Below, piece after piece: positions 3,055 through 14,003 of a DNA stretch of 64,000 bases. Under the pieces are notes generated by a model. That model was not told the origin of the DNA. It saw only the letters and a list, made by a program, of their open reading frames with translations, and searched no databases. The translations under genes were made by a program, and so were the position numbers. Source of the stretch: a virus (Duplodnaviria > Heunggongvirae > Uroviricota > Caudoviricetes); the IMG/VR virus record IMGVR_UViG_2531839524_000004. One strand, given 5' to 3'. Each line of letters opens with the position of its first letter. Position 1 is the stretch's first letter.

Positions 3055-5088
3055 ATGACCCAAGTCGCGAAGAAAATTCTGGTGACGTGCGCGCTGCCGT
3101 ACGCTAACGGCTCAATCCACCTCGGCCATATGCTGGAGCACATCCAGGCTGATGTCTGGGTTCGTTACCAGCGAATGCGCGGCCACGAGGTTAATTTCAT
3201 CTGTGCCGACGATGCCCACGGTACGCCAATCATGCTGAAAGCACAGCAGCTTGGTATCACACCGGAACAGATGATTGGCGAAATGAGTCAGGAACATCAG
3301 ACTGATTTCGCAGGCTTTAACATCAGCTATGACAACTATCACTCGACGCACAGCGAAGAGAACCGTCAGTTGTCCGAGCTTATCTACACTCGCCTGAAAG
3401 AGAACGGTTTTATTAAAAACCGCACCATCTCTCAGCTGTACGATCCGGAAAAAGGCATGTTCCTGCCGGACCGTTTTGTGAAAGGCACCTGCCCGAAATG
3501 TAAAGCACCGGATCAATACGGCGATAACTGTGAAGTCTGCGGCGCTACTTACAGCCCGACTGAACTGATCGAGCCGAAATCGGTAGTTTCTGGTGCTACG
3601 CCGGTAATGCGTGATTCCGAACACTTCTTCTTTGATCTGCCTTCTTTCAGCGAAATGTTGCAGGCATGGACCCGCAGCGGTGCGTTGCAGGAGCAGGTGG
3701 CAAACAAAATGCAGGAGTGGTTTGAATCTGGCCTGCAACAGTGGGATATCTCCCGCGATGCGCCGTACTTCGGTTTTGAAATTCCGAACGCACCGGGCAA
3801 ATATTTCTACGTCTGGCTGGACGCGCCGATTGGCTACATGGGTTCCTTCAAGAATCTGTGCGACAAACGCGGCGACACTACCAGCTTCGACGAATACTGG
3901 AAGAAAGACTCCACCGCCGAGCTGTACCACTTCATCGGTAAAGATATCGTTTACTTCCACAGCCTGTTCTGGCCTGCCATGCTGGAAGGCAGCAATTTCC
4001 GCAAGCCGACCAACCTGTTTGTTCATGGCTATGTGACGGTGAACGGTGCGAAGATGTCCAAGTCTCGCGGCACCTTTATTAAAGCCAGCACCTGGCTGAA
4101 TCATTTTGACGCTGACAGCCTGCGTTACTACTACACTGCGAAACTCTCTTCGCGCATTGATGATATCGATCTCAACCTGGAGGATTTCGTTCAGCGCGTG
4201 AATGCCGATATCGTGAACAAAGTGGTTAACCTGGCCTCCCGTAATGCAGGCTTTATCAACAAGCGTTTTGACGGCGTGCTGGCAAGCGAACTGGCTGACC
4301 CGCAACTGTACAAAACCTTTACTGATGCTGCTGAAGTGATTGGTGAAGCATGGGAAAGCCGCGAATTTGGTAAAGCGATTCGTGAAATCATGGCGCTGGC
4401 TGATCTGGCTAACCGCTATGTCGATGAACAGGCTCCGTGGGTGGTGGCGAAGCAGGAAGGGCGCGATGCCGATCTGCAGGCGATTTGCTCTATGGGCATT
4501 AACCTGTTCCGCGTGCTGATGACGTACCTGAAACCGGTACTGCCGAAACTGACTGAACGTGCAGAAGCATTCCTGAATACAGAACTGACCTGGGATGGTA
4601 TCCAGCAACCGCTGCTGGGCCATAAAGTGAATCCGTTCAAGGCACTGTATAACCGCATCGACATGAAGCAGGTTGAAGCACTGGTGGAAGCATCCAAAGA
4701 GGAAGTAAAAGCCGCTGCCGCGCCAGTAACTGGCCCACTGGCAGATGATCCGATTCAGGAAACCATCACCTTTGACGACTTCGCCAAAGTTGACCTGCGC
4801 GTGGCTCTGATTGAAAACGCGGAGTTTGTCGAAGGTTCTGACAAACTGCTTCGCCTGACGCTGGATCTCGGTGGCGAAAAACGTAATGTCTTCTCCGGCA
4901 TTCGTTCCGCTTATCCAGATCCACAGGCACTGATTGGTCGTCACACCATTATGGTGGCCAACCTGGCTCCGCGTAAAATGCGCTTCGGTATCTCCGAAGG
5001 CATGGTGATGGCTGCTGGCCCCGGCGGGAAAGATATCTTCCTGTTAAGCCCGGATGCTGGTGCTAAACCAGGCCACCAGGTTAAGTAA
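3055..5088 (+). CDS. metG: methionine--tRNA ligase
   Basis: Class I aaRS motifs ([16 protein letters not shown]) and Zn knuckle CPKC...CEVC; start taken at MTQVAKKIL (3055) rather than the upstream in-frame ATG at 2926. Confidence 0.95.
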
Positions 5089-6493: not shown

Positions 6494-6599
6494 CGGTTGC
6501 AACTTATTGATAATGGCGGTCACAATTTGATTCTTTTCTATAAGAATCCGTTGATCGCCACTACTCTCCTTCCATACCCGCAATCACATCCTTAAATAT

Positions 6600-7457
6600 C
6601 AATAAGTTATAGTTGTTTATACAATCAAGAAAACAACTGAATAACAGATCAACGAAACATCAACGCTTTCACCCGATTTGGTCTAAAAAATTGACGTTTT
6701 CACACATCACTGCTTATACCCGTAACTCTACGCAGCAGACAGCGCCACAGAGTCCAATTTTCACCACAGACGACTCAACACACTACCAACAAAAACACAC
6801 GCTCAAAATCGCTCCCGTTGCGTTACACAACCATATAAACAACATATTTTCAGGTATAACAAAACAACTAAATAACACATATGCCATTACCCAAAACAAC
6901 CAACCTCTTTATGGCAGGCTACCGAAAAGACCCACCTCTTCTCCCCAGGCTACCGGACAACCAACCTAACTTTCACAGGCAATCCGAAAACATTCATACG
7001 CGCGATACCCACGACACGCCATTACCCAAACAGCGAAGAAACACCTGAACCGCTGAAACCCCAACGAAGCCTGTAACCGCAAGGTTTCTCTCAATCCCAA
7101 AAGACACGAAACATAACAATCACGGGAAACGCCATTACCCAATACACGAATAACTACAAAAGCCTTTCACACACTCCAGACAAACAACTCAAACACAACA
7201 ACGAAAGGAATCGCCCACCTGCCATTACTCCATACACGGAGAAGAACAATCACCAAAACGACGAGAACACCCCATAGAAGAACCACCGCAAAACGAACGA
7301 AACCACATACACCGACAGAGAAAACAACACACCCAATTCACCAACAGAAATAGTCGCCGTATAGGACATTCTGGAAGGAGTGAGCATTAACGCCTATAGA
7401 GAGGTTGAGACAGATAAAACACAACATGTATAGCGAAGAAGCCAGGTATGTATAAGT
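6600..7457 (+). repeat. A+C-rich, G-poor non-coding region with four GCCATTAC(C/T)C-initiated repeat units
   Basis: Units begin at 6883, 7018, 7131 and 7221; the only ORF (6613-6969) translates to low-complexity T/Q/N/P/H sequence; strong strand asymmetry visible by eye. Confidence 0.6.
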
Positions 7458-7480
7458 GGGGAGGGAAGGAGGGGTGTCGC
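7458..7480 (+). terminator. intrinsic terminator closing the A+C-rich region
   Basis: ggagg-ggtgtcg-cctcc followed by TTTTT. Confidence 0.55.
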
Positions 7481-7553
7481 CTCCTTTTTCGTATTTATTC
7501 AACTCCTGATTTTATCCCCCCGTAACACCCCTACGGTCAGCCTTCGGTCCATA

Positions 7554-7696
7554 CAGGGAAAAGGCTGCATCCCGCTACAGAAACGGCTGGGTTGCCTTCG
7601 GGGAACGGCTGGAGGTTTTCAGGGAAACGGTCGAGTTGCCTGTGTGGATTTCGGGAAAAGGCTCGATGCCGGTTCAGGAACGGTGGCGTACCGGTA
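7554..7696. repeat. tandem array of about six degenerate 20-25 bp direct repeats (core GGGAAA(A/C)GGCT)
   Basis: cagggaaaaggctgcatcc / cagaaacggctgggttgcc / ggggaacggctggagg / agggaaacggtcgagttgcc / cgggaaaaggctcgatgcc / caggaacggtggcgtacc. Confidence 0.6.
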
Positions 7697-8017
7697 TAGC
7701 GAGAGGGAGAGTTGCGGCTACCCACCTGTAATGTGCGGGAAGAAGAGAGGCGCTCACGTAGGCGGACTTGCTTACCGCTGGATTCCCTCTGAATGCCCAG
7801 CTACAGCGTAATTGTGCCAGACAGCCAACGGGTCACAATCGATTTCAGTAGGTTTTTGGGGAGAGGATTACTCTGCCACCAGCCACTTTCGGCCACTAAA
7901 TCAGAATAATGTAAAAAGTGTACTCGGTACTGAACCTGAAAACTCACTGCCAAAACCACATTCACCGGAATAAAATCCTTTTTCGCCTGTGCGTTATTGC
8001 GATAATAACACCATCAA

Positions 8018-8032
8018 GAAAACATGTTGTTT
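8018..8032. promoter_or_regulatory. operator-like palindrome (variant GAAAACA-TG-TTGTTT)
   Basis: Immediately upstream of the RBS of gene 8045. Confidence 0.45.
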
Positions 8033-9999: not shown

Positions 10000-10049
10000 T
10001 TATTAAGGCCATCAGCATTGGTGGCCTTAAATGACCATCTTGTTTCCCG

Positions 10050-10134
10050 CAGGCTAAAAACACCAACCTCTTCCCTCCAGGCAACCGACAAACCCACCTG
10101 TTCCCGTCCGGCTACCGTAACTTTCCACTTTGAC
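10050..10134. repeat. second, shorter copy of the A+C-rich element seen at 6893-6990
   Basis: Shares ...aaaacaccaacctctt..caggc.accg..acccacct.ttc..c.ggctaccg... blocks with 6893-6990. Confidence 0.5.
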
Positions 10135-10168
10135 GCCTTATTCGTACAACGATAATTAACGCCAACAA

Positions 10169-10183
10169 GAAAACAATTTGTTA
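10169..10183. promoter_or_regulatory. operator-like palindrome GAAAACAA-T-TTGTTA
   Basis: 20 bp upstream of ATG 10204, RBS AAGGAA between. Confidence 0.5.
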
Positions 10184-10203
10184 TTTACGATAAGGAATTA
10201 ATC

Positions 10204-10686
10204 ATGAATTTTATCGCTACTGTAAACGCACCCGCACATGGCAATATCGCTGTAACGTTCTCTGACATTGAAAAACGAGTACTTGGTGCATGGCGCGACA
10301 ATGAGACGGTAGAACTGTCAGCACAAGAAAAATGCATTATTGCACGCGACATCATTGGCAATCGTCGTTACTCGCGGGTATTTGAGAAAGCGTATGTGGT
10401 AAATTCTGGATTCGGAACGTTCGTCTTTCCGGTGCGCTCCGGGCGATTCTGCCAGTCCAAGCTGATTGAGTTCGCTACGCAGATTTCTGTCTGGATTAAA
10501 ACTCAATCGTCGTTCAAATTTTCCGACGATGAAGCAGTATCGCAGGGGATGCGGATCGCCAACAATGCAATTAAATGCAAAAACATTACGTATACCGCTG
10601 GCGTTGATACATGGAAACTGTTTTGCGCTAACTTTATGCTGAATGTATACGCAAGCAACCGCATCCACATCCTTGATGGCGTGTAA
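10204..10686 (+). CDS. hypothetical protein
   Basis: ORF track, 160 aa. Confidence 0.55.
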   Translation: MNFIATVNAPAHGNIAVTFSDIEKRVLGAWRDNETVELSAQEKCIIARDIIGNRRYSRVFEKAYVVNSGFGTFVFPVRSGRFCQSKLIEFATQISVWIKTQSSFKFSDDEAVSQGMRIANNAIKCKNITYTAGVDTWKLFCANFMLNVYASNRIHILDGV

Positions 10687-10694
10687 CTGAGAAG

Positions 10695-10850
10695 AGGGCC
10701 AGAAACGGCCCTTTATCTATAGCCACCAGCTGCCGCAGGGAAATTTTCAGAAACGGCGAGGAACGTATTCATGAGCCGACGGGAAACGGCCAGGATTTTT
10801 TTCGGGAAACGGCTGCATTCGCCTTTATGTAGAAAAAACATCGGGAAGCT
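10695..10850. repeat. second array of GGGAAACGGC-type direct repeats
   Basis: ccagaaacggccc / cagggaaattttc / agaaacggcgagg / cgggaaacggccagg / cgggaaacggctgc; first unit doubles as a terminator-like hairpin (agggcc-agaaac-ggccct). Confidence 0.5.
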
Positions 10851-11278
10851 GGTGGAATCCAACCAGCGGTTGTCGGACAGGTGAGCGGGGAAAATTATGA
10901 TGACTTTCGTCGCCTGAGACATCCAGATTTCTTTCGTAGCATAATCACATACGTGATTAAGTGGTGTGATTATGTGAAAAATCACGCGCACATAATACGC
11001 GAGCGGATACGGAACAAAACAAAATGCCGATCCGCGCCGACAAATAAACGCGGATCACATAGCAAGACTAAAAGCCAATGATTAACCATATTCTATAGCG
11101 CAATATAACGCGTTTTAAGCGCGTTAATGTGTTAAGTAATGGGTATGTACTGGCAAGGATATAAAAGCGCGTCTATGGCGTCATTTTGGCGCTTATTTTT
11201 ATGTTGTTGGAGTGAGTTAAAGACAATAAAAAACGCGCCAATGATGGCGCGTTATGGTGGGAGTATTGGAAACGAAAA

Positions 11279-11297
11279 AGCGCCCATAGTGGGCGCT
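11279..11297 (-). terminator. hairpin AGCGCCCA-tag-TGGGCGCT, copy 1 (end of the minus-strand operon)
   Basis: 8-bp stem; on the minus strand it is followed by TTTTTCG; sits directly 3' of the 76-aa gene. Confidence 0.55.
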
Positions 11298-11302
11298 CGA
11301 TT

Positions 11303-11533
11303 TTATTTGTGTAAACTGATTTTAAATCCCATTTCTACAAACGCTTTTAACATTAAAAATATATCAGCGTCGTTCACGTCTGCTTTTTTTCGCTCCTGGT
11401 CGCTCAATAAGTCAATTTTGCGCGTCGTTTCATCTATAAGCTCGACTGAACGCCCAGCGTAACCAGCGATCCCAGCGATGCGATTAACATAATATTCATT
11501 GTGGACGTTAACGTCAGCGATAAGAACAAACAT
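11303..11533 (-). CDS. hypothetical protein (third gene of an AT-rich operon)
   Basis: ORF track, 76 aa. Confidence 0.5.
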   Translation of the reverse strand: MFVLIADVNVHNEYYVNRIAGIAGYAGRSVELIDETTRKIDLLSDQERKKADVNDADIFLMLKAFVEMGFKISLHK

Positions 11534-11553
11534 GATTAAGCTCCTTAAAAAAA

Positions 11554-11757
11554 TTAAATAGAATTTTGAAGTTTTCCGATTAATGCGCTTAAACGTAAGT
11601 ATTCACGTTTGCGCTTGCAATCTCGCTTGCTGTTAAGCAAATCAGAAAACGTAAAATTTAATTGGTCGCGTTGCGCGATCAAATCATCGATTAATTCCAG
11701 TTTATAAGCGCGATACTTTGCGCGATATTCCGCGCGGATCTTGTCATAGCTGACCAT
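11554..11757 (-). CDS. hypothetical basic coiled-coil protein (67 aa)
   Basis: ORF track gives 11554-11802; start moved to the internal ATG (MVSYDKIRAEY) because AAAGGAG RBS precedes it and the annotated N-terminus is encoded by the hairpin repeat. Confidence 0.45.
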   Translation of the reverse strand: MVSYDKIRAEYRAKYRAYKLELIDDLIAQRDQLNFTFSDLLNSKRDCKRKREYLRLSALIGKLQNSI

Positions 11758-11778
11758 TTTTAAAGCTCCTTTAAAGCG

Positions 11779-11797
11779 CCCATAGTGGGCGCTTGAT
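11779..11797 (-). repeat. hairpin AGCGCCCA-tag-TGGGCGCT, copy 2 (intercistronic)
   Basis: Identical 19-bp hairpin plus shared flanks (aaagcgcccatagtgggcgct.gatt) between the 216-aa and 67-aa genes. Confidence 0.55.
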
Positions 11798-11805
11798 TCC
11801 ATTAA

Positions 11806-12456
11806 TTACGCTTTGAAAGCATCAGCTAAATAATTGTAGAAATCATTTTTAATGAAGCGATATTGCTGAGTACCAGCTTTGGCGCTCCCAGCTCCTTTGA
11901 CTTTTTCAACAAGTCCAAGACGTTCGCAAAGATTGATCAACTGGTTGGCTTGAGTATAGCCAGCGTCCAATTTAATTTCGCACGCTTTTTTAGCTTCATT
12001 CATTAAATCGAAAACAGCGCCATTGGTGAACGTGTCGATCTCGTCGTTAATCATATCGATTAAAGCGAATACACGAGATCCTGACATATCAGCGACGGAA
12101 TAAACACATTTACCAGCTTTAATGGATTTAACCAGATAAACCAGTTTTTCCAGTGAATAACTATTAGTCATTGCATCACGAAAAAATACTTCTGGCGCTT
12201 GTTTGCTTGCTTTAATCGCATAGTAGAAAACAGAGCATAATTTATCGTCTTCTACTGCGTTTACGACGTTGTTGATGAAGTAAGCAAGTTTAGTGGTCGC
12301 AGCTTGCATATTTGCTTTGTCTGCTTTAGTGTGCGTACCATTTTTATAATGTTCGTTATATGTTTGAGTTGCCAGATCTGCTTTTTCGCGCAGTTCATCG
12401 GATACAATGGATGCAGCTTCAATGATGGATTTTTTAGAAATGATAATGTTAGCCAT
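11806..12456 (-). CDS. hypothetical protein (first gene of the AT-rich operon)
   Basis: ORF track, 216 aa; AT-rich relative to neighbours; AT-rich promoter region 12457-12690 upstream. Confidence 0.6.
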   Translation of the reverse strand: MANIIISKKSIIEAASIVSDELREKADLATQTYNEHYKNGTHTKADKANMQAATTKLAYFINNVVNAVEDDKLCSVFYYAIKASKQAPEVFFRDAMTNSYSLEKLVYLVKSIKAGKCVYSVADMSGSRVFALIDMINDEIDTFTNGAVFDLMNEAKKACEIKLDAGYTQANQLINLCERLGLVEKVKGAGSAKAGTQQYRFIKNDFYNYLADAFKA

Positions 12457-12696
12457 GATAATTTTTCCTTATGTAAATTTAAAATTTATTGTCGTTAGCG
12501 TCTTCGCTTTCGACGAGTTCAATTATCGATACGCGAAAAAAGATTGCAAGTGTTTTTTTAAAATTTTTTGCAGGGATGAAAGTCCTAGAAATAAAAGCGA
12601 GATCGTCGAAGGTGTTCCCTAAATAAATAATCGATTCCGGCTTTCGACCTTATATATATTTAGATTATTTGATTTATAGATATAAAGAAGTGATGT

Positions 12697-12726
12697 GAAA
12701 AATAATAACCGGACTTAGCCGGTTAT
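12697..12726 (-). terminator. intrinsic terminator ending the helicase-side minus-strand operon
   Basis: ataaccgg-acttag-ccggttat; on the minus strand followed by a T-run. Confidence 0.6.
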
Positions 12727-12739
12727 TAACCTTATAGAT

Positions 12740-13048
12740 TTATTGAACAGACTCTACAGCCTTACGATTGGTGTCAAATAGCGCATCAACGAACTGTGCC
12801 GATGACTCGCTAGATTCGCAATCCAACATTGCCCGTTCTTCATTTGCCACTTTCTTACACAGTTCCACATTCTCACCTATCGCTTTTCCTGCTTTTACGG
12901 CTGCCGAAAATTGATACATGCAAACTGATACATTCTGAGACGTTGAGCACACGTCATTCATCAGCGACTGAATGACAGGCTTATAGTCCATTGCATTTGC
13001 CGCAACTGAGCAAAGTAAAAATAATGGTGGTAACAATATCGATTTCAT
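12740..13048 (-). CDS. hypothetical secreted/periplasmic protein
   Basis: ORF track, 102 aa; N-terminal signal-peptide-like MKSILLPPLFLLCSVAANA; several cysteines. Confidence 0.55.
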   Translation of the reverse strand: MKSILLPPLFLLCSVAANAMDYKPVIQSLMNDVCSTSQNVSVCMYQFSAAVKAGKAIGENVELCKKVANEERAMLDCESSESSAQFVDALFDTNRKAVESVQ

Positions 13049-13051
13049 AAC

Positions 13052-13576
13052 TCAAAAAGGCAAAATTCGTTCAACCCAATCGAACAAAACAACTATTTTT
13101 CTACCGTTCTCGACACGTAGTGTAACCTGACAAGCATCTGCGCCTGCTGACACCCCCTCAATTTCACGGCCATCCGCCATGTACACCCTTATAGATTTGT
13201 TTGCTTTGTAGGCTTGGTTGCAAATTGCAAAAAAATCGCGGCGTGATGGCCGATTATCGACATAATCAGGGTGAACTGTTAGTCGACCTTTGAAATCGTG
13301 TGCGATACTGTCAACCACACCTGATTCAATTGTACTAATGCGTTCAAGTGGGAGCCTTATACGATTTTCTTTGTCAAAAGGGGCTGGGCAAAGGTCAACT
13401 TTGTTACGAGATGGCATGAGGCCATAAACGTACATGCAAAACGCCTGGCCATCTTCGAGAGTGACCCTTACAGGAATTTGTTCTCTGCGCCAGAACATCA
13501 GTAGTTTTTCAACGTTAGTGTAATCTCGCGGCCAGAGTTCAGCTTGGATACCGTAGGTAATATCTTTGGTTGTCAT
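13052..13576 (-). CDS. hypothetical protein
   Basis: ORF track gives 13052-13654; start set at the internal Met (MTTKDITYG) to avoid overlap with the upstream lipoprotein gene. Confidence 0.45.
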   Translation of the reverse strand: MTTKDITYGIQAELWPRDYTNVEKLLMFWRREQIPVRVTLEDGQAFCMYVYGLMPSRNKVDLCPAPFDKENRIRLPLERISTIESGVVDSIAHDFKGRLTVHPDYVDNRPSRRDFFAICNQAYKANKSIRVYMADGREIEGVSAGADACQVTLRVENGRKIVVLFDWVERILPF

Positions 13577-13580
13577 GTCA

Positions 13581-14003
13581 TCACAGAGTTGTTGGCAGAA
13601 TGTCGATGTCACCAGAATTGCTGGTGAACACCCTGAACGCTTTTGTGTCTCCATTCTTCAGAGTCGTTTCTCGCTCTTGACGAGCGGGGTTTAGAGCACA
13701 TAAACCTGCACCTTCAAGAGATGCACCCACAATTAATTCTCCGGCATTTAAATGGAAAGTCGCTTTTTCGCCTGTAGCCAGTTTTGCGACAGTTTCGCCG
13801 TTGATGAAAATGGAAGCATCACATCCAGCTCCTACAAAACCTGTGTCTCTCATTACCACCAACGTAGCTGGCGCTGCGCTTTGATACTTGAACACTTTGG
13901 CCTGCGGTGCTGGTTTGGCGTCATGGATTGATATTGGGCGTGATTGGCACGCGGTAAGCATCAACACTGGTAACGTTAGTAGAGGGAGAAGCGAGTATTT
14001 CAT
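13581..14003 (-). CDS. putative lipoprotein
   Basis: ORF track (13581-14045); start at MKYSLLPLLTLPVLMLTAC gives a signal peptide ending in lipobox LTAC. Confidence 0.55.
   Translation of the reverse strand: MKYSLLPLLTLPVLMLTACQSRPISIHDAKPAPQAKVFKYQSAAPATLVVMRDTGFVGAGCDASIFINGETVAKLATGEKATFHLNAGELIVGASLEGAGLCALNPARQERETTLKNGDTKAFRVFTSNSGDIDILPTTL

Follow-up and report, generated by a model that had tools for sequence, protein, structure and literature searches.

Repeated terminator-like hairpins frame a variable small-gene slot behind a conserved gene of SSU5-type phage-plasmids

Why does an AT-rich operon of three small genes carry two identical hairpins, one between its genes and one behind them? 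The question is raised by a virus record of IMG/VR, IMGVR_UViG_2531839524_000004, of which a stretch of 64,000 nt was analysed (hereafter the window). Its minus strand encodes g1 (216 aa, 11806-12456), g2 (67 aa, basic with a pI of 9.7, 11554-11757) and g3 (76 aa, mildly acidic with a pI of 5.6, 11303-11533). An earlier note on this DNA had described an AT-rich minus-strand operon containing a small basic protein and a small partner, and this description holds: the three open reading frames (ORFs) are present, g2 is basic, and the operon has a GC content of 38.6% against a window mean of 46.3%, with 3.6% of equal-sized windows being as low. As to the hairpins, we consider it likely that they belong to an operon kept silent in lysogeny, in which duplicated terminator hairpins attenuate transcription and also serve as homology patches for the exchange of small-gene cassettes.

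Judged by its sequence relationships, the window is part of an SSU5-type (SSU5-like) phage-plasmid of E. coli, since a 2-kb region of it matches the 108-kb, non-mobilizable E. coli plasmid p108_MLI108-3 (NZ_CP117002.1) at 99.2% identity and the phages CMS-2020a, PhiR41_1, Cyrano and SSU5 at 97-83% identity. The same region is matched by 763 plasmids in PLSDB, from Klebsiella, Escherichia, Enterobacter, Yersinia and Salmonella, and the Prokaryotic Genome Annotation Pipeline likewise predicts g1, g2 and g3 in NZ_CP117002.1 (99% identical). Our main sample comprised 80 loci fetched via g1 and not via the hairpin, to avoid ascertainment bias; 79 of them reach past g1. The order of elements is constant across these loci: a FljA-like gene, g1, the hairpin (H), a variable slot, H again, a second terminator-like hairpin (T2), ∼600 nt of noncoding DNA and a convergent 160-aa gene. 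Besides, an exact scan of public collections located the 19-mer of H in 94 stretches of viral contigs and 10 of genomes. Of the latter, four are single copies in unrelated metagenome-assembled genomes (Nitrosomonadales, Chloroflexota, Actinomycetota), and by a rough calculation chance alone should produce ∼4 such matches in 596 Gb. Each contig of ∼108 kb gave one stretch with one to three copies, which indicates that H is specific to a single locus.

Within the window, H (AGCGCCCActaTGGGCGCT; as a 19-mer, AGCGCCCACTATGGGCGCT) occurs twice, both times on the minus strand, with 0.01 copies expected by chance, and the repeat around it extends to 31 nt at 90% identity. Each copy has a stem of 8-9 bp with six G-C pairs, a 3-nt loop and a folding energy of -15.5 kcal/mol. 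Of the two exact copies with shared flanks reported previously, the distal one lies precisely where it had been placed (11279-11297), whereas the proximal one (AGCGCCCA-cta-TGGGCGCT) is found at 11775-11793, 4 nt away from the 11779-11797 given there. The proximal copy begins 12 nt past the g1 stop codon, and its tail is UUUAAAGGAG, the ribosome-binding site of g2, in place of a U-tract. The distal copy begins 5 nt past the g3 stop codon, is preceded by AAAA and is followed by the T-run noted before (UUUUUCGUUU); it was scored as a terminator on both strands in a terminator scan. We take the distal copy to be probably a canonical, bidirectional intrinsic terminator, and the proximal copy would act as an attenuator or 3'-end stabiliser and as the left homology patch of the cassette slot. 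Behind the distal copy follows T2 (11232-11253, minus strand; AACGCGCCAtcatTGGCGCGTT plus a T-run, i.e. AACGCGCCA-tcat-TGGCGCGTT and then UUUUUAUU; -15.7 kcal/mol), a putative second tandem terminator that is conserved in Cyrano and SSU5 with its loop flipped or changed.

The position of H relative to g1 is nearly fixed, as it starts 12-13 nt past the g1 stop codon in 78 of the 79 loci; the exception (L156) has the same stem with a 4-nt loop. What stands behind it varies in at least eight ways among 78 loci. Most often the slot holds g2 (23 loci), g2-g3 as in the window (15) or g3 (15), and it is empty in nine. Less frequent are g3', a variant 45-51% identical to g3 (four loci), g2-g3' (three), g3'-H-g3, where the two variants stand in tandem as two cassettes with three hairpins (two), and g2b followed by two copies of H (four). 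The last of these belongs to a lineage with a 62%-identical g1, and g2b is a distant relative of g2, of equal length and in the same slot, with ∼30% identity by eye. Cyrano itself lacks g2, and SSU5 lacks g3. The association between hairpin and genes that the earlier note had raised is therefore firm for g1, whereas g2 and g3 vary independently.

How the slot is built can be read from the tails of the hairpins. In almost all of the 79 loci the last H ends in TTTTTT(C)GT, whereas internal copies have the tails TAGTTTTAA, TTTAAAGGA or TTTTAAGGA, most of them without a U-tract, and then the next start codon; put differently, an internal junction consists of H, then TTTAAAGGAG or TTTTAAGGAG, then ATG. 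In empty-slot loci (L158, L171-175), the single H bears the U-tract and T2 follows directly. Since the tails differ between last and internal copies, the cassette unit reads as a ribosome-binding site, a small ORF and a copy of H, apparently inserted right behind the g1 terminator stem so as to split off its U-tract. In a lineage with a 49%-identical g1, two or three copies of H follow one another every 44 nt without an intervening gene.

More distant g1 relatives, which were recovered from Logan assemblies (none came from an IMG/VR search), carry terminators of other sequence at the same place. In L189 this is ACGCGCCCA-gtg-TGGCGCGT. In L191, a distant AT-rich relative, a GATCCGCA...TGCGGATC terminator is followed by a 29-aa hydrophobic ORF (MKSLFTKVFQFILIGVLVVPLVWWWMLAF) and a second, unrelated terminator (3640-3830 of that locus). 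As far as these predicted terminators and ORFs go, small genes are found behind g1 time and again, also where the hairpins are no repeats of each other; because distant relatives carry unrelated stems, the deeply conserved feature appears to be a terminator at this position together with the slot behind it.

Variation within H suggests what is being maintained. In 151 of 153 copies all of the inner seven pairs are unchanged, while the outermost pair is A-T in 141, G-T in six, G-C in two (with both sides changed) and mismatched in four; the loop is CTA in 122, TAG in 18 and something else in 13. The pattern of A-T, G-T and G-C at the outer pair, together with the freedom of the loop, is consistent with selection for pairing. 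The loops moreover form reverse-complement pairs (CTA/TAG, TTA/TAA, CAA/TTG, TCA/TGA and ATA/TAT), so the loop or the whole palindrome seems to flip repeatedly. Because T2 shows the same behaviour (TTGT/ACAA, TCAT/ATGA and TTGA/TCAA in loci L108-L187), flipping would be a general property of short perfect palindromes and not special to H.

Segment-wise identity to the window reveals sharp mosaics among the loci, and these indicate where exchanges took place. L144-147, L153 and L154 are ∼77% identical to the window in the 5' half of g1 and 93-99% identical from g3 through the convergent gene. In L144-147, identity jumps from ∼77% to 94-99% on the way from the g1 spacer to the ribosome-binding site of g3; in 50-nt bins, the 3' end of g1 and the spacer of L145 are still of the SSU5 type, and the junction strings place the switch within H, TAGTTTT and AAGGA. 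Conversely, L148-150 contain a g3 cassette 90-93% identical to that of the window in a backbone that is 76-78% identical on either side, with g3-type sequence up to 'ccaccataacgcgcca', the 5' arm of T2, and the backbone type from the T2 loop on. Given these two sets of breakpoints, both edges of the exchanged unit appear to fall in conserved hairpin junctions, with T2 being a breakpoint as well. A simpler event may account for Cyrano, whose g1-H-g3 arrangement can be derived from that of the window by a deletion between two TTAAGGAGCTT ribosome-binding sites.

Published RNA-seq data for a Cyrano lysogen (LF82) bear on expression. In lysogeny broth, CYRAN_113 (g1, 97% identical) and CYRAN_112 (g3) had 5.9 and 5.0 normalised reads, respectively, with a floor of 4.99, compared with 96 for the putative repressor CYRAN_45 and 7084 for CYRAN_43, and the known toxin-antitoxin genes of the same plasmid were expressed (PMC9928086, S1 Table). 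After 6 h in macrophages, Cyrano g1 rose only to a log2 of ∼5.5, and g3 is not on the moron list of that paper (PMC9928086). The operon is thus silent in the plasmid state, as judged from g1 and g3 in one lysogen, despite a near-consensus promoter. This putative sigma-70-type promoter (TTGCAA, a 16-nt spacer and GATAAT; 12522-12549, minus strand), found in a consensus scan, has an A/T tract ahead of it (∼12550-12570), recurs in the lineage with a 48-49%-identical g1 and would drive the operon. The same scan returned no promoter-like site at or beside either copy of H, and hence no cassette promoter for g2 or g3.

Tight regulation fits with the region upstream of this promoter, which is AT-rich and contains motifs that are conserved even in distant relatives. 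The stretch at 12579-12740 (31% GC, minus strand) includes TTATTTCTAGGACTTT (12579-12594), TTTAGGGAACACCTTC (12608-12623) and two copies of WMTATAAGG (12648-12656 and 12730-12738). Neither 16-mer has another close match in the window, and WMTATAAGG has one further copy, at 13187-13195. These motifs recur ahead of the g1 homologues in L034 and L184 and in the distant L189 and L191. The latter two, with g1 profile E-values of 1e-28 to 1e-34, have kept TTTAGGGAACACCTTC and TTATTTCTAGGACTTT as well as two or three AAWMTATAAGG motifs at distances of ∼80 nt (L189, 2640-2830; L191, 2520-2700). They are probably operator or activator sites of a tightly regulated promoter, and the operon is probably expressed in the lytic cycle. 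Transcript data for an induced SSU5-type element were not found in the literature.

We therefore asked what the proteins themselves might reveal. None of g1-g3 matched Pfam, NCBIfam, PADLOC or PDB sequences, and PHROGs returned no credible function, namely families without functional annotation (phrog_1513 for g1, phrog_6145 for g2 and phrog_1585 for g3) and one implausible name. In annotated relatives all three are 'hypothetical', with the exception of the 67-aa gene of SSU5, which is labelled 'MIT family metal ion transporter'; this name is implausible for g2, because it is a soluble basic protein of just 67 aa. The earlier note had set its conjecture against hairpins that act as ordinary terminators and proteins of known phage housekeeping function; while the hairpins do look like ordinary terminators, the proteins match no known housekeeping function. 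For g1, neither a single-sequence nor a profile search matched PDB sequences, and an exhaustive profile search of 1.84 billion representative proteins found 23 relatives, all of one narrow family, with eight at E<1e-30. An AlphaFold2 model of g1 (mean predicted local distance difference test, pLDDT, 83; predicted template modelling score 0.72) suggests an N-terminal bundle of long helices (residues 8-114) and a C-terminal winged-helix domain (∼130-213). Fold searches with the C-terminal ∼90 residues gave winged-helix matches at probability 0.97-0.99 but at E>0.07; these were generic (the Orc1/Cdc6 winged helix, TubR, RTP, PadR/LmrR and MarR), and fold searches with the g1 model returned no specific relative and no match at E<0.001. 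The g3 model was unreliable (pLDDT 53) and too poor for a structure search.

Homologues of the three proteins come almost solely from Enterobacterales contigs of 100-115 kb, i.e. from the same element family, and those of g2 were found only on such contigs (∼100-115 kb). No other genomic context was seen for g2 or g3, every match being on SSU5-type contigs save one decayed, integrated copy on an E. coli chromosome (L188; CP125919.1, 388706-396936), whose g1 has been disrupted into a pseudogene but which retains the distal H, T2 and a 70%-identical g3 in intact form. Synteny of g1 extends to relatives as remote as profile E-values of 1e-28 to 1e-53 imply, and g1 is AT-richer than its surroundings in five of six related loci checked (e.g. 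41% against 54% GC in L189). As a syntenic gene with low GC in nearly all lineages checked, g1 reads as a core gene of the whole SSU5 group and not as a recent acquisition. The proposal of a recently acquired AT-rich cassette therefore applies to the acquired g2 and g3 only in so far as they are exchangeable, and not to g1. Two smaller observations concern the accessory genes. Within g3, a 9-nt tandem repeat (11462-11479, minus strand) encodes IAG, and homologues have one, two or three copies (IAG, IAGIAG, IAGIAGIAG), a variation that suggests slippage. For g2, some database entries (P0203) use a longer, 82-aa reading (11554-11802, minus strand) from an ATG upstream of the hairpin, in which H would encode 'SAHYGR'; the 67-aa start with its AAGGAG site, unlike the longer form, is conserved across lineages.

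Taken together, we envisage the following. The near-consensus sigma-70 promoter with its AT-rich, motif-laden upstream region would drive g1, with H as the intrinsic terminator of this gene. Directly behind that terminator, different relatives carry one or two small promoterless units, each composed of a ribosome-binding site, a short ORF and a copy of H; internal copies of H have mostly lost the U-tract and are followed by TTTTAAGGAG and the next ORF, and the last H keeps its U-tract, backed by T2. On a shared transcript, an internal H would terminate or pause a fraction of transcription and shield the 3' end of g1, which would yield more of g1 than of g2 or g3. Insulation from the convergent genes would come from the last H together with T2, and the distal H also scores as a plus-strand terminator. 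At the DNA level, H, the adjacent ribosome-binding site and T2 are islands of near-identity in otherwise diverged DNA, which homologous recombination between co-resident phage-plasmids may use to insert, delete or swap cassettes.

Several points weigh against this proposal. Termination, read-through and lytic timing are presumptive for this element under induction, and the LF82 data come from a relative that lacks g2. Not every junction obeys the rule of an ORF followed by H, as g2 and g3 of the window are separated by a 20-nt spacer with a T-run and AAGGAG and no hairpin. The left breakpoint intervals also take in the shared ribosome-binding site, so that the crossover may have occurred there and not in H. 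Finally, the inner stem of H is kept more strictly than that of the adjacent T2, which is canonical in 47 of 65 loci, and its inner pairs show no compensatory change. A plain terminator does not obviously need so strict a stem, and gene conversion or sequence-specific recognition could contribute.

This last point leads to the alternatives. H might also be recognised by its sequence. As an 8-3-8 palindrome in double-stranded DNA, it would suit binding by a protein dimer, for instance of g1, or by a recombinase specialised in capturing cassettes, and termination would then be secondary. Such a site would explain why the inner stem is invariant even across lineages whose g1 DNA is only 72-79% identical, why the same 19-mer turned up in the exact-match scan where the g1 protein is 48-49% identical, why the loop is free and occurs in either orientation, as expected of a symmetric site, and why H is confined to one locus at a fixed distance from a gene with a predicted winged helix. 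Yet H always stands at the 3' end of genes, with a canonical U-tract on the last copy and tolerance of a G-U wobble at the outer pair, all of which argues for an RNA terminator; distant g1 relatives have unrelated stems, the proximal hairpin of a lineage with a 53%-identical g1 is a bulged variant, the annotations of three relatives list no recombinase gene for ∼4-5 kb to the left or right of the locus, and purifying selection on a short stem combined with frequent recombination would also leave the stem invariant. We regard this explanation as improbable. A related idea includes the 616 nt of noncoding DNA that separate the operon from the convergent gene (10204-10686). Four GCCGTTTC(CC/TG) repeats (10700-10813, minus strand) lie there, at the end away from the operon. 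The window contains five matches to this motif against 0.55 expected, and the repeats at 10700-10813 are conserved in SSU5, in the lineages with 48%- and 62%-identical g1 and in distant relatives. Conserved repeats of the GCCGTTTCCC type, g1 and H might form one cis/trans unit in which the winged-helix protein binds H, the repeats or both. Examples would be an initiator with its lytic replication origin, or a protein whose binding sets H apart as the site for cassette capture, with the sequence of H being kept for protein recognition too. The strict inner stem and the persistence of the repeats in the most distant relatives leave room for such recognition by g1, but we think this, too, improbable.

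Alternatively, the internal H could be chiefly an element of mRNA processing or stability. The operon would then yield a single RNA, in which H shields the g1 segment from 3' exonucleases or is itself a nuclease target and thereby sets half-lives. Intercistronic hairpins of this sort are established in E. coli, with the REP (repetitive extragenic palindromic) elements of malE-malF and the sib/tI retroregulator of phage lambda as examples, and internal copies of H fit in having a perfect stem without a U-tract (three U, then AAAGGAG). However, the TAGTTTT or TATTTTT tails retained by internal copies of the SSU5 type might still bring about termination, sequence by itself does not distinguish stability from attenuation, and this role is largely compatible with our proposal instead of being opposed to it; as the main function we consider it rather unlikely. 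Far less credible is the notion, raised by the earlier note, of an RNA-antitoxin-like arrangement, or more broadly of an addiction or defence module made up of a toxin-antitoxin pair or of a type III system with an RNA antitoxin from the hairpin repeats. In its favour, small basic and acidic proteins stand side by side, repeated structured elements flank them, and some relatives have three tandem 44-nt units containing H. But g2 occurs alone in 23 loci, g3 alone in 15 and neither in nine; no toxin, antitoxin or defence family was matched in Pfam, NCBIfam or PADLOC, nor any family in Rfam; the tandem units in L063 are followed by no gene; the repeats stand after genes, and no tandem RNA array precedes a toxin gene; and the Cyrano lysogen expresses its known toxin-antitoxin genes but not g1 or g3. 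On these grounds, namely the independence of g2 and g3, the lack of a family match, the missing upstream array and the silence in lysogeny, we rejected this reading. Of the RNA-based regulation suggested earlier, attenuation or termination by the hairpins remains plausible, while the RNA-antitoxin arrangement does not.

The locus has parallels among described systems. Its closest counterpart is the promoter-early stem-loop (PeSL) of T4-type phages, a strong sigma-70 early promoter with AT-rich sequence ahead of it joined to a stem-loop, present in ∼50 copies in several hyperplastic regions (Arbiol et al. 2010, PMC2839356; Comeau et al. 2014, PMC4122927). In both cases, a short repeat with a GC-rich terminator or attenuator stem-loop ends in a ribosome-binding site and flanks small, variable orphan ORFs, and the repeat copies coincide with the endpoints of insertions, deletions and replacements, here at H with the ribosome-binding site and within T2. 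Unlike a PeSL, however, the H repeat (∼31 nt) includes no promoter, is confined to one to three copies at a single locus per ∼108-kb genome (two in the window) without genome-wide dispersal, and resides in a temperate, siphovirus-type phage-plasmid. By this analogy, the locus would work like a PeSL without being one.

Other comparisons are looser. Morons of lambdoid phages are extra genes with their own promoter and terminator that sit between conserved genes and are expressed from the prophage. Both g2 and g3 resemble them in being present or absent between conserved neighbours and in having a terminator-like hairpin at their 3' end, but their cassettes showed no promoter, and g3 of the Cyrano lysogen neither rose above the RNA-seq floor nor featured among the listed morons, so that we rejected a classical moron. 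REP elements are imperfect palindromes of ∼35 nt dispersed throughout the E. coli genome. Like these and sib/tI, a stable hairpin right after an upstream cistron could raise its expression over that of downstream genes, although H has a perfect 8-bp stem and occurs at one locus only, and its function is read here from sequence. Hairpin-associated minute inversions, a flip-flop of the loop, were reportedly described by Kelchner and Wendel in 1996 for noncoding chloroplast DNA. The loops of H and T2 likewise occur as reverse-complement pairs within an unchanged stem, the difference being that these are phage-plasmid terminators with stems of 8-9 bp, for which template switching or recombination between the arms may be responsible. 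Integron attC sites, in turn, are imperfect palindromes of 57-141 nt with extrahelical bases, accompanied by an adjacent IntI integrase and attI. We rejected an integron cassette, as H is a 19-nt perfect-stem palindrome and no integrase is annotated within ∼4-5 kb in three annotated relatives. All in all, the locus is an example of known phage mosaicism and no new kind of RNA-based system.

The surroundings of the operon showed further features. A further hairpin that had been pointed out alongside T2, and that is present as stated, is TAACGCG-cttaaaa-CGCGTTA (11105-11125, minus strand), with a 7-bp stem, a 7-nt loop, -8.1 kcal/mol and no U-tract; it is probably not a terminator. Its noncoding block contains a similar motif, GCTTACAGCGCGTTTTA, in related lineages (by eye only). 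Overlapping it, a promoter-like site (TTAAAA-17-TAGAAT; 11118-11090, minus strand) is followed ∼30 nt on by a strong terminator-like hairpin (11057-11028, -18.3 kcal/mol) and then GCAUUUUGUUUUG, a pair of sites that could give rise to a small RNA of ∼60 nt. The block at 11028-11118 was found only in E. coli-type relatives and has no Rfam match; a permissive Rfam search over 10000-13500 returned only sub-threshold chance matches. As for the downstream repeats, L189 has at least seven copies of the GCCGTTTC type and L191 has repeats of the GGGAAAAC type. In the window, a second GCCGTTTC(CC/TG)-type cluster of about six copies (7556-7690, minus strand) lies 3 kb from the first, in a 1.5-kb noncoding stretch (∼6500-8020) with GGGTAATGGC repeats and a strong AT skew. 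Such clusters look like iterons or other protein-binding arrays and are possibly origin-related; at this locus, the cumulative GC skew shows no clear sign of an origin.

On the other side of the operon, the second gene upstream of g1 (13052-13654, minus strand) strongly matches FljA, which represses phase-1 flagellin (PF03614, E=2.5e-84), and has a weak Hfq-like match besides. It appears to be a phage-plasmid copy of an RNA-binding translational repressor and is highly mosaic, being 100, 78, 72 or 67% identical at the nucleotide level beside near-identical g1. Between it and the g1 upstream region lies a 102-aa ORF (12740-13048, minus strand; phrog_9536) with a signal-peptide-like N-terminus, present in the window and in NZ_CP117002.1. 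Cyrano and SSU5 lack this ORF, and their gap between the FljA-like gene and g1 is ∼300 nt compared with ∼600 nt. By this comparison, its position reads as a second variable slot.

SSU5-like phage-plasmids are widespread in clinical Enterobacterales, and the present locus offers a compact and well-sampled case of small-gene exchange in them, with terminator-like hairpins as the junctions and natural variants that map breakpoints to within tens of bases. The analysis also corrects the implausible transporter label that databases attach to g2. Lastly, it draws attention to g1, a conserved, lysogeny-silent orphan with a predicted winged helix beside conserved repeat arrays, as a target for work on the lytic programme of these elements.

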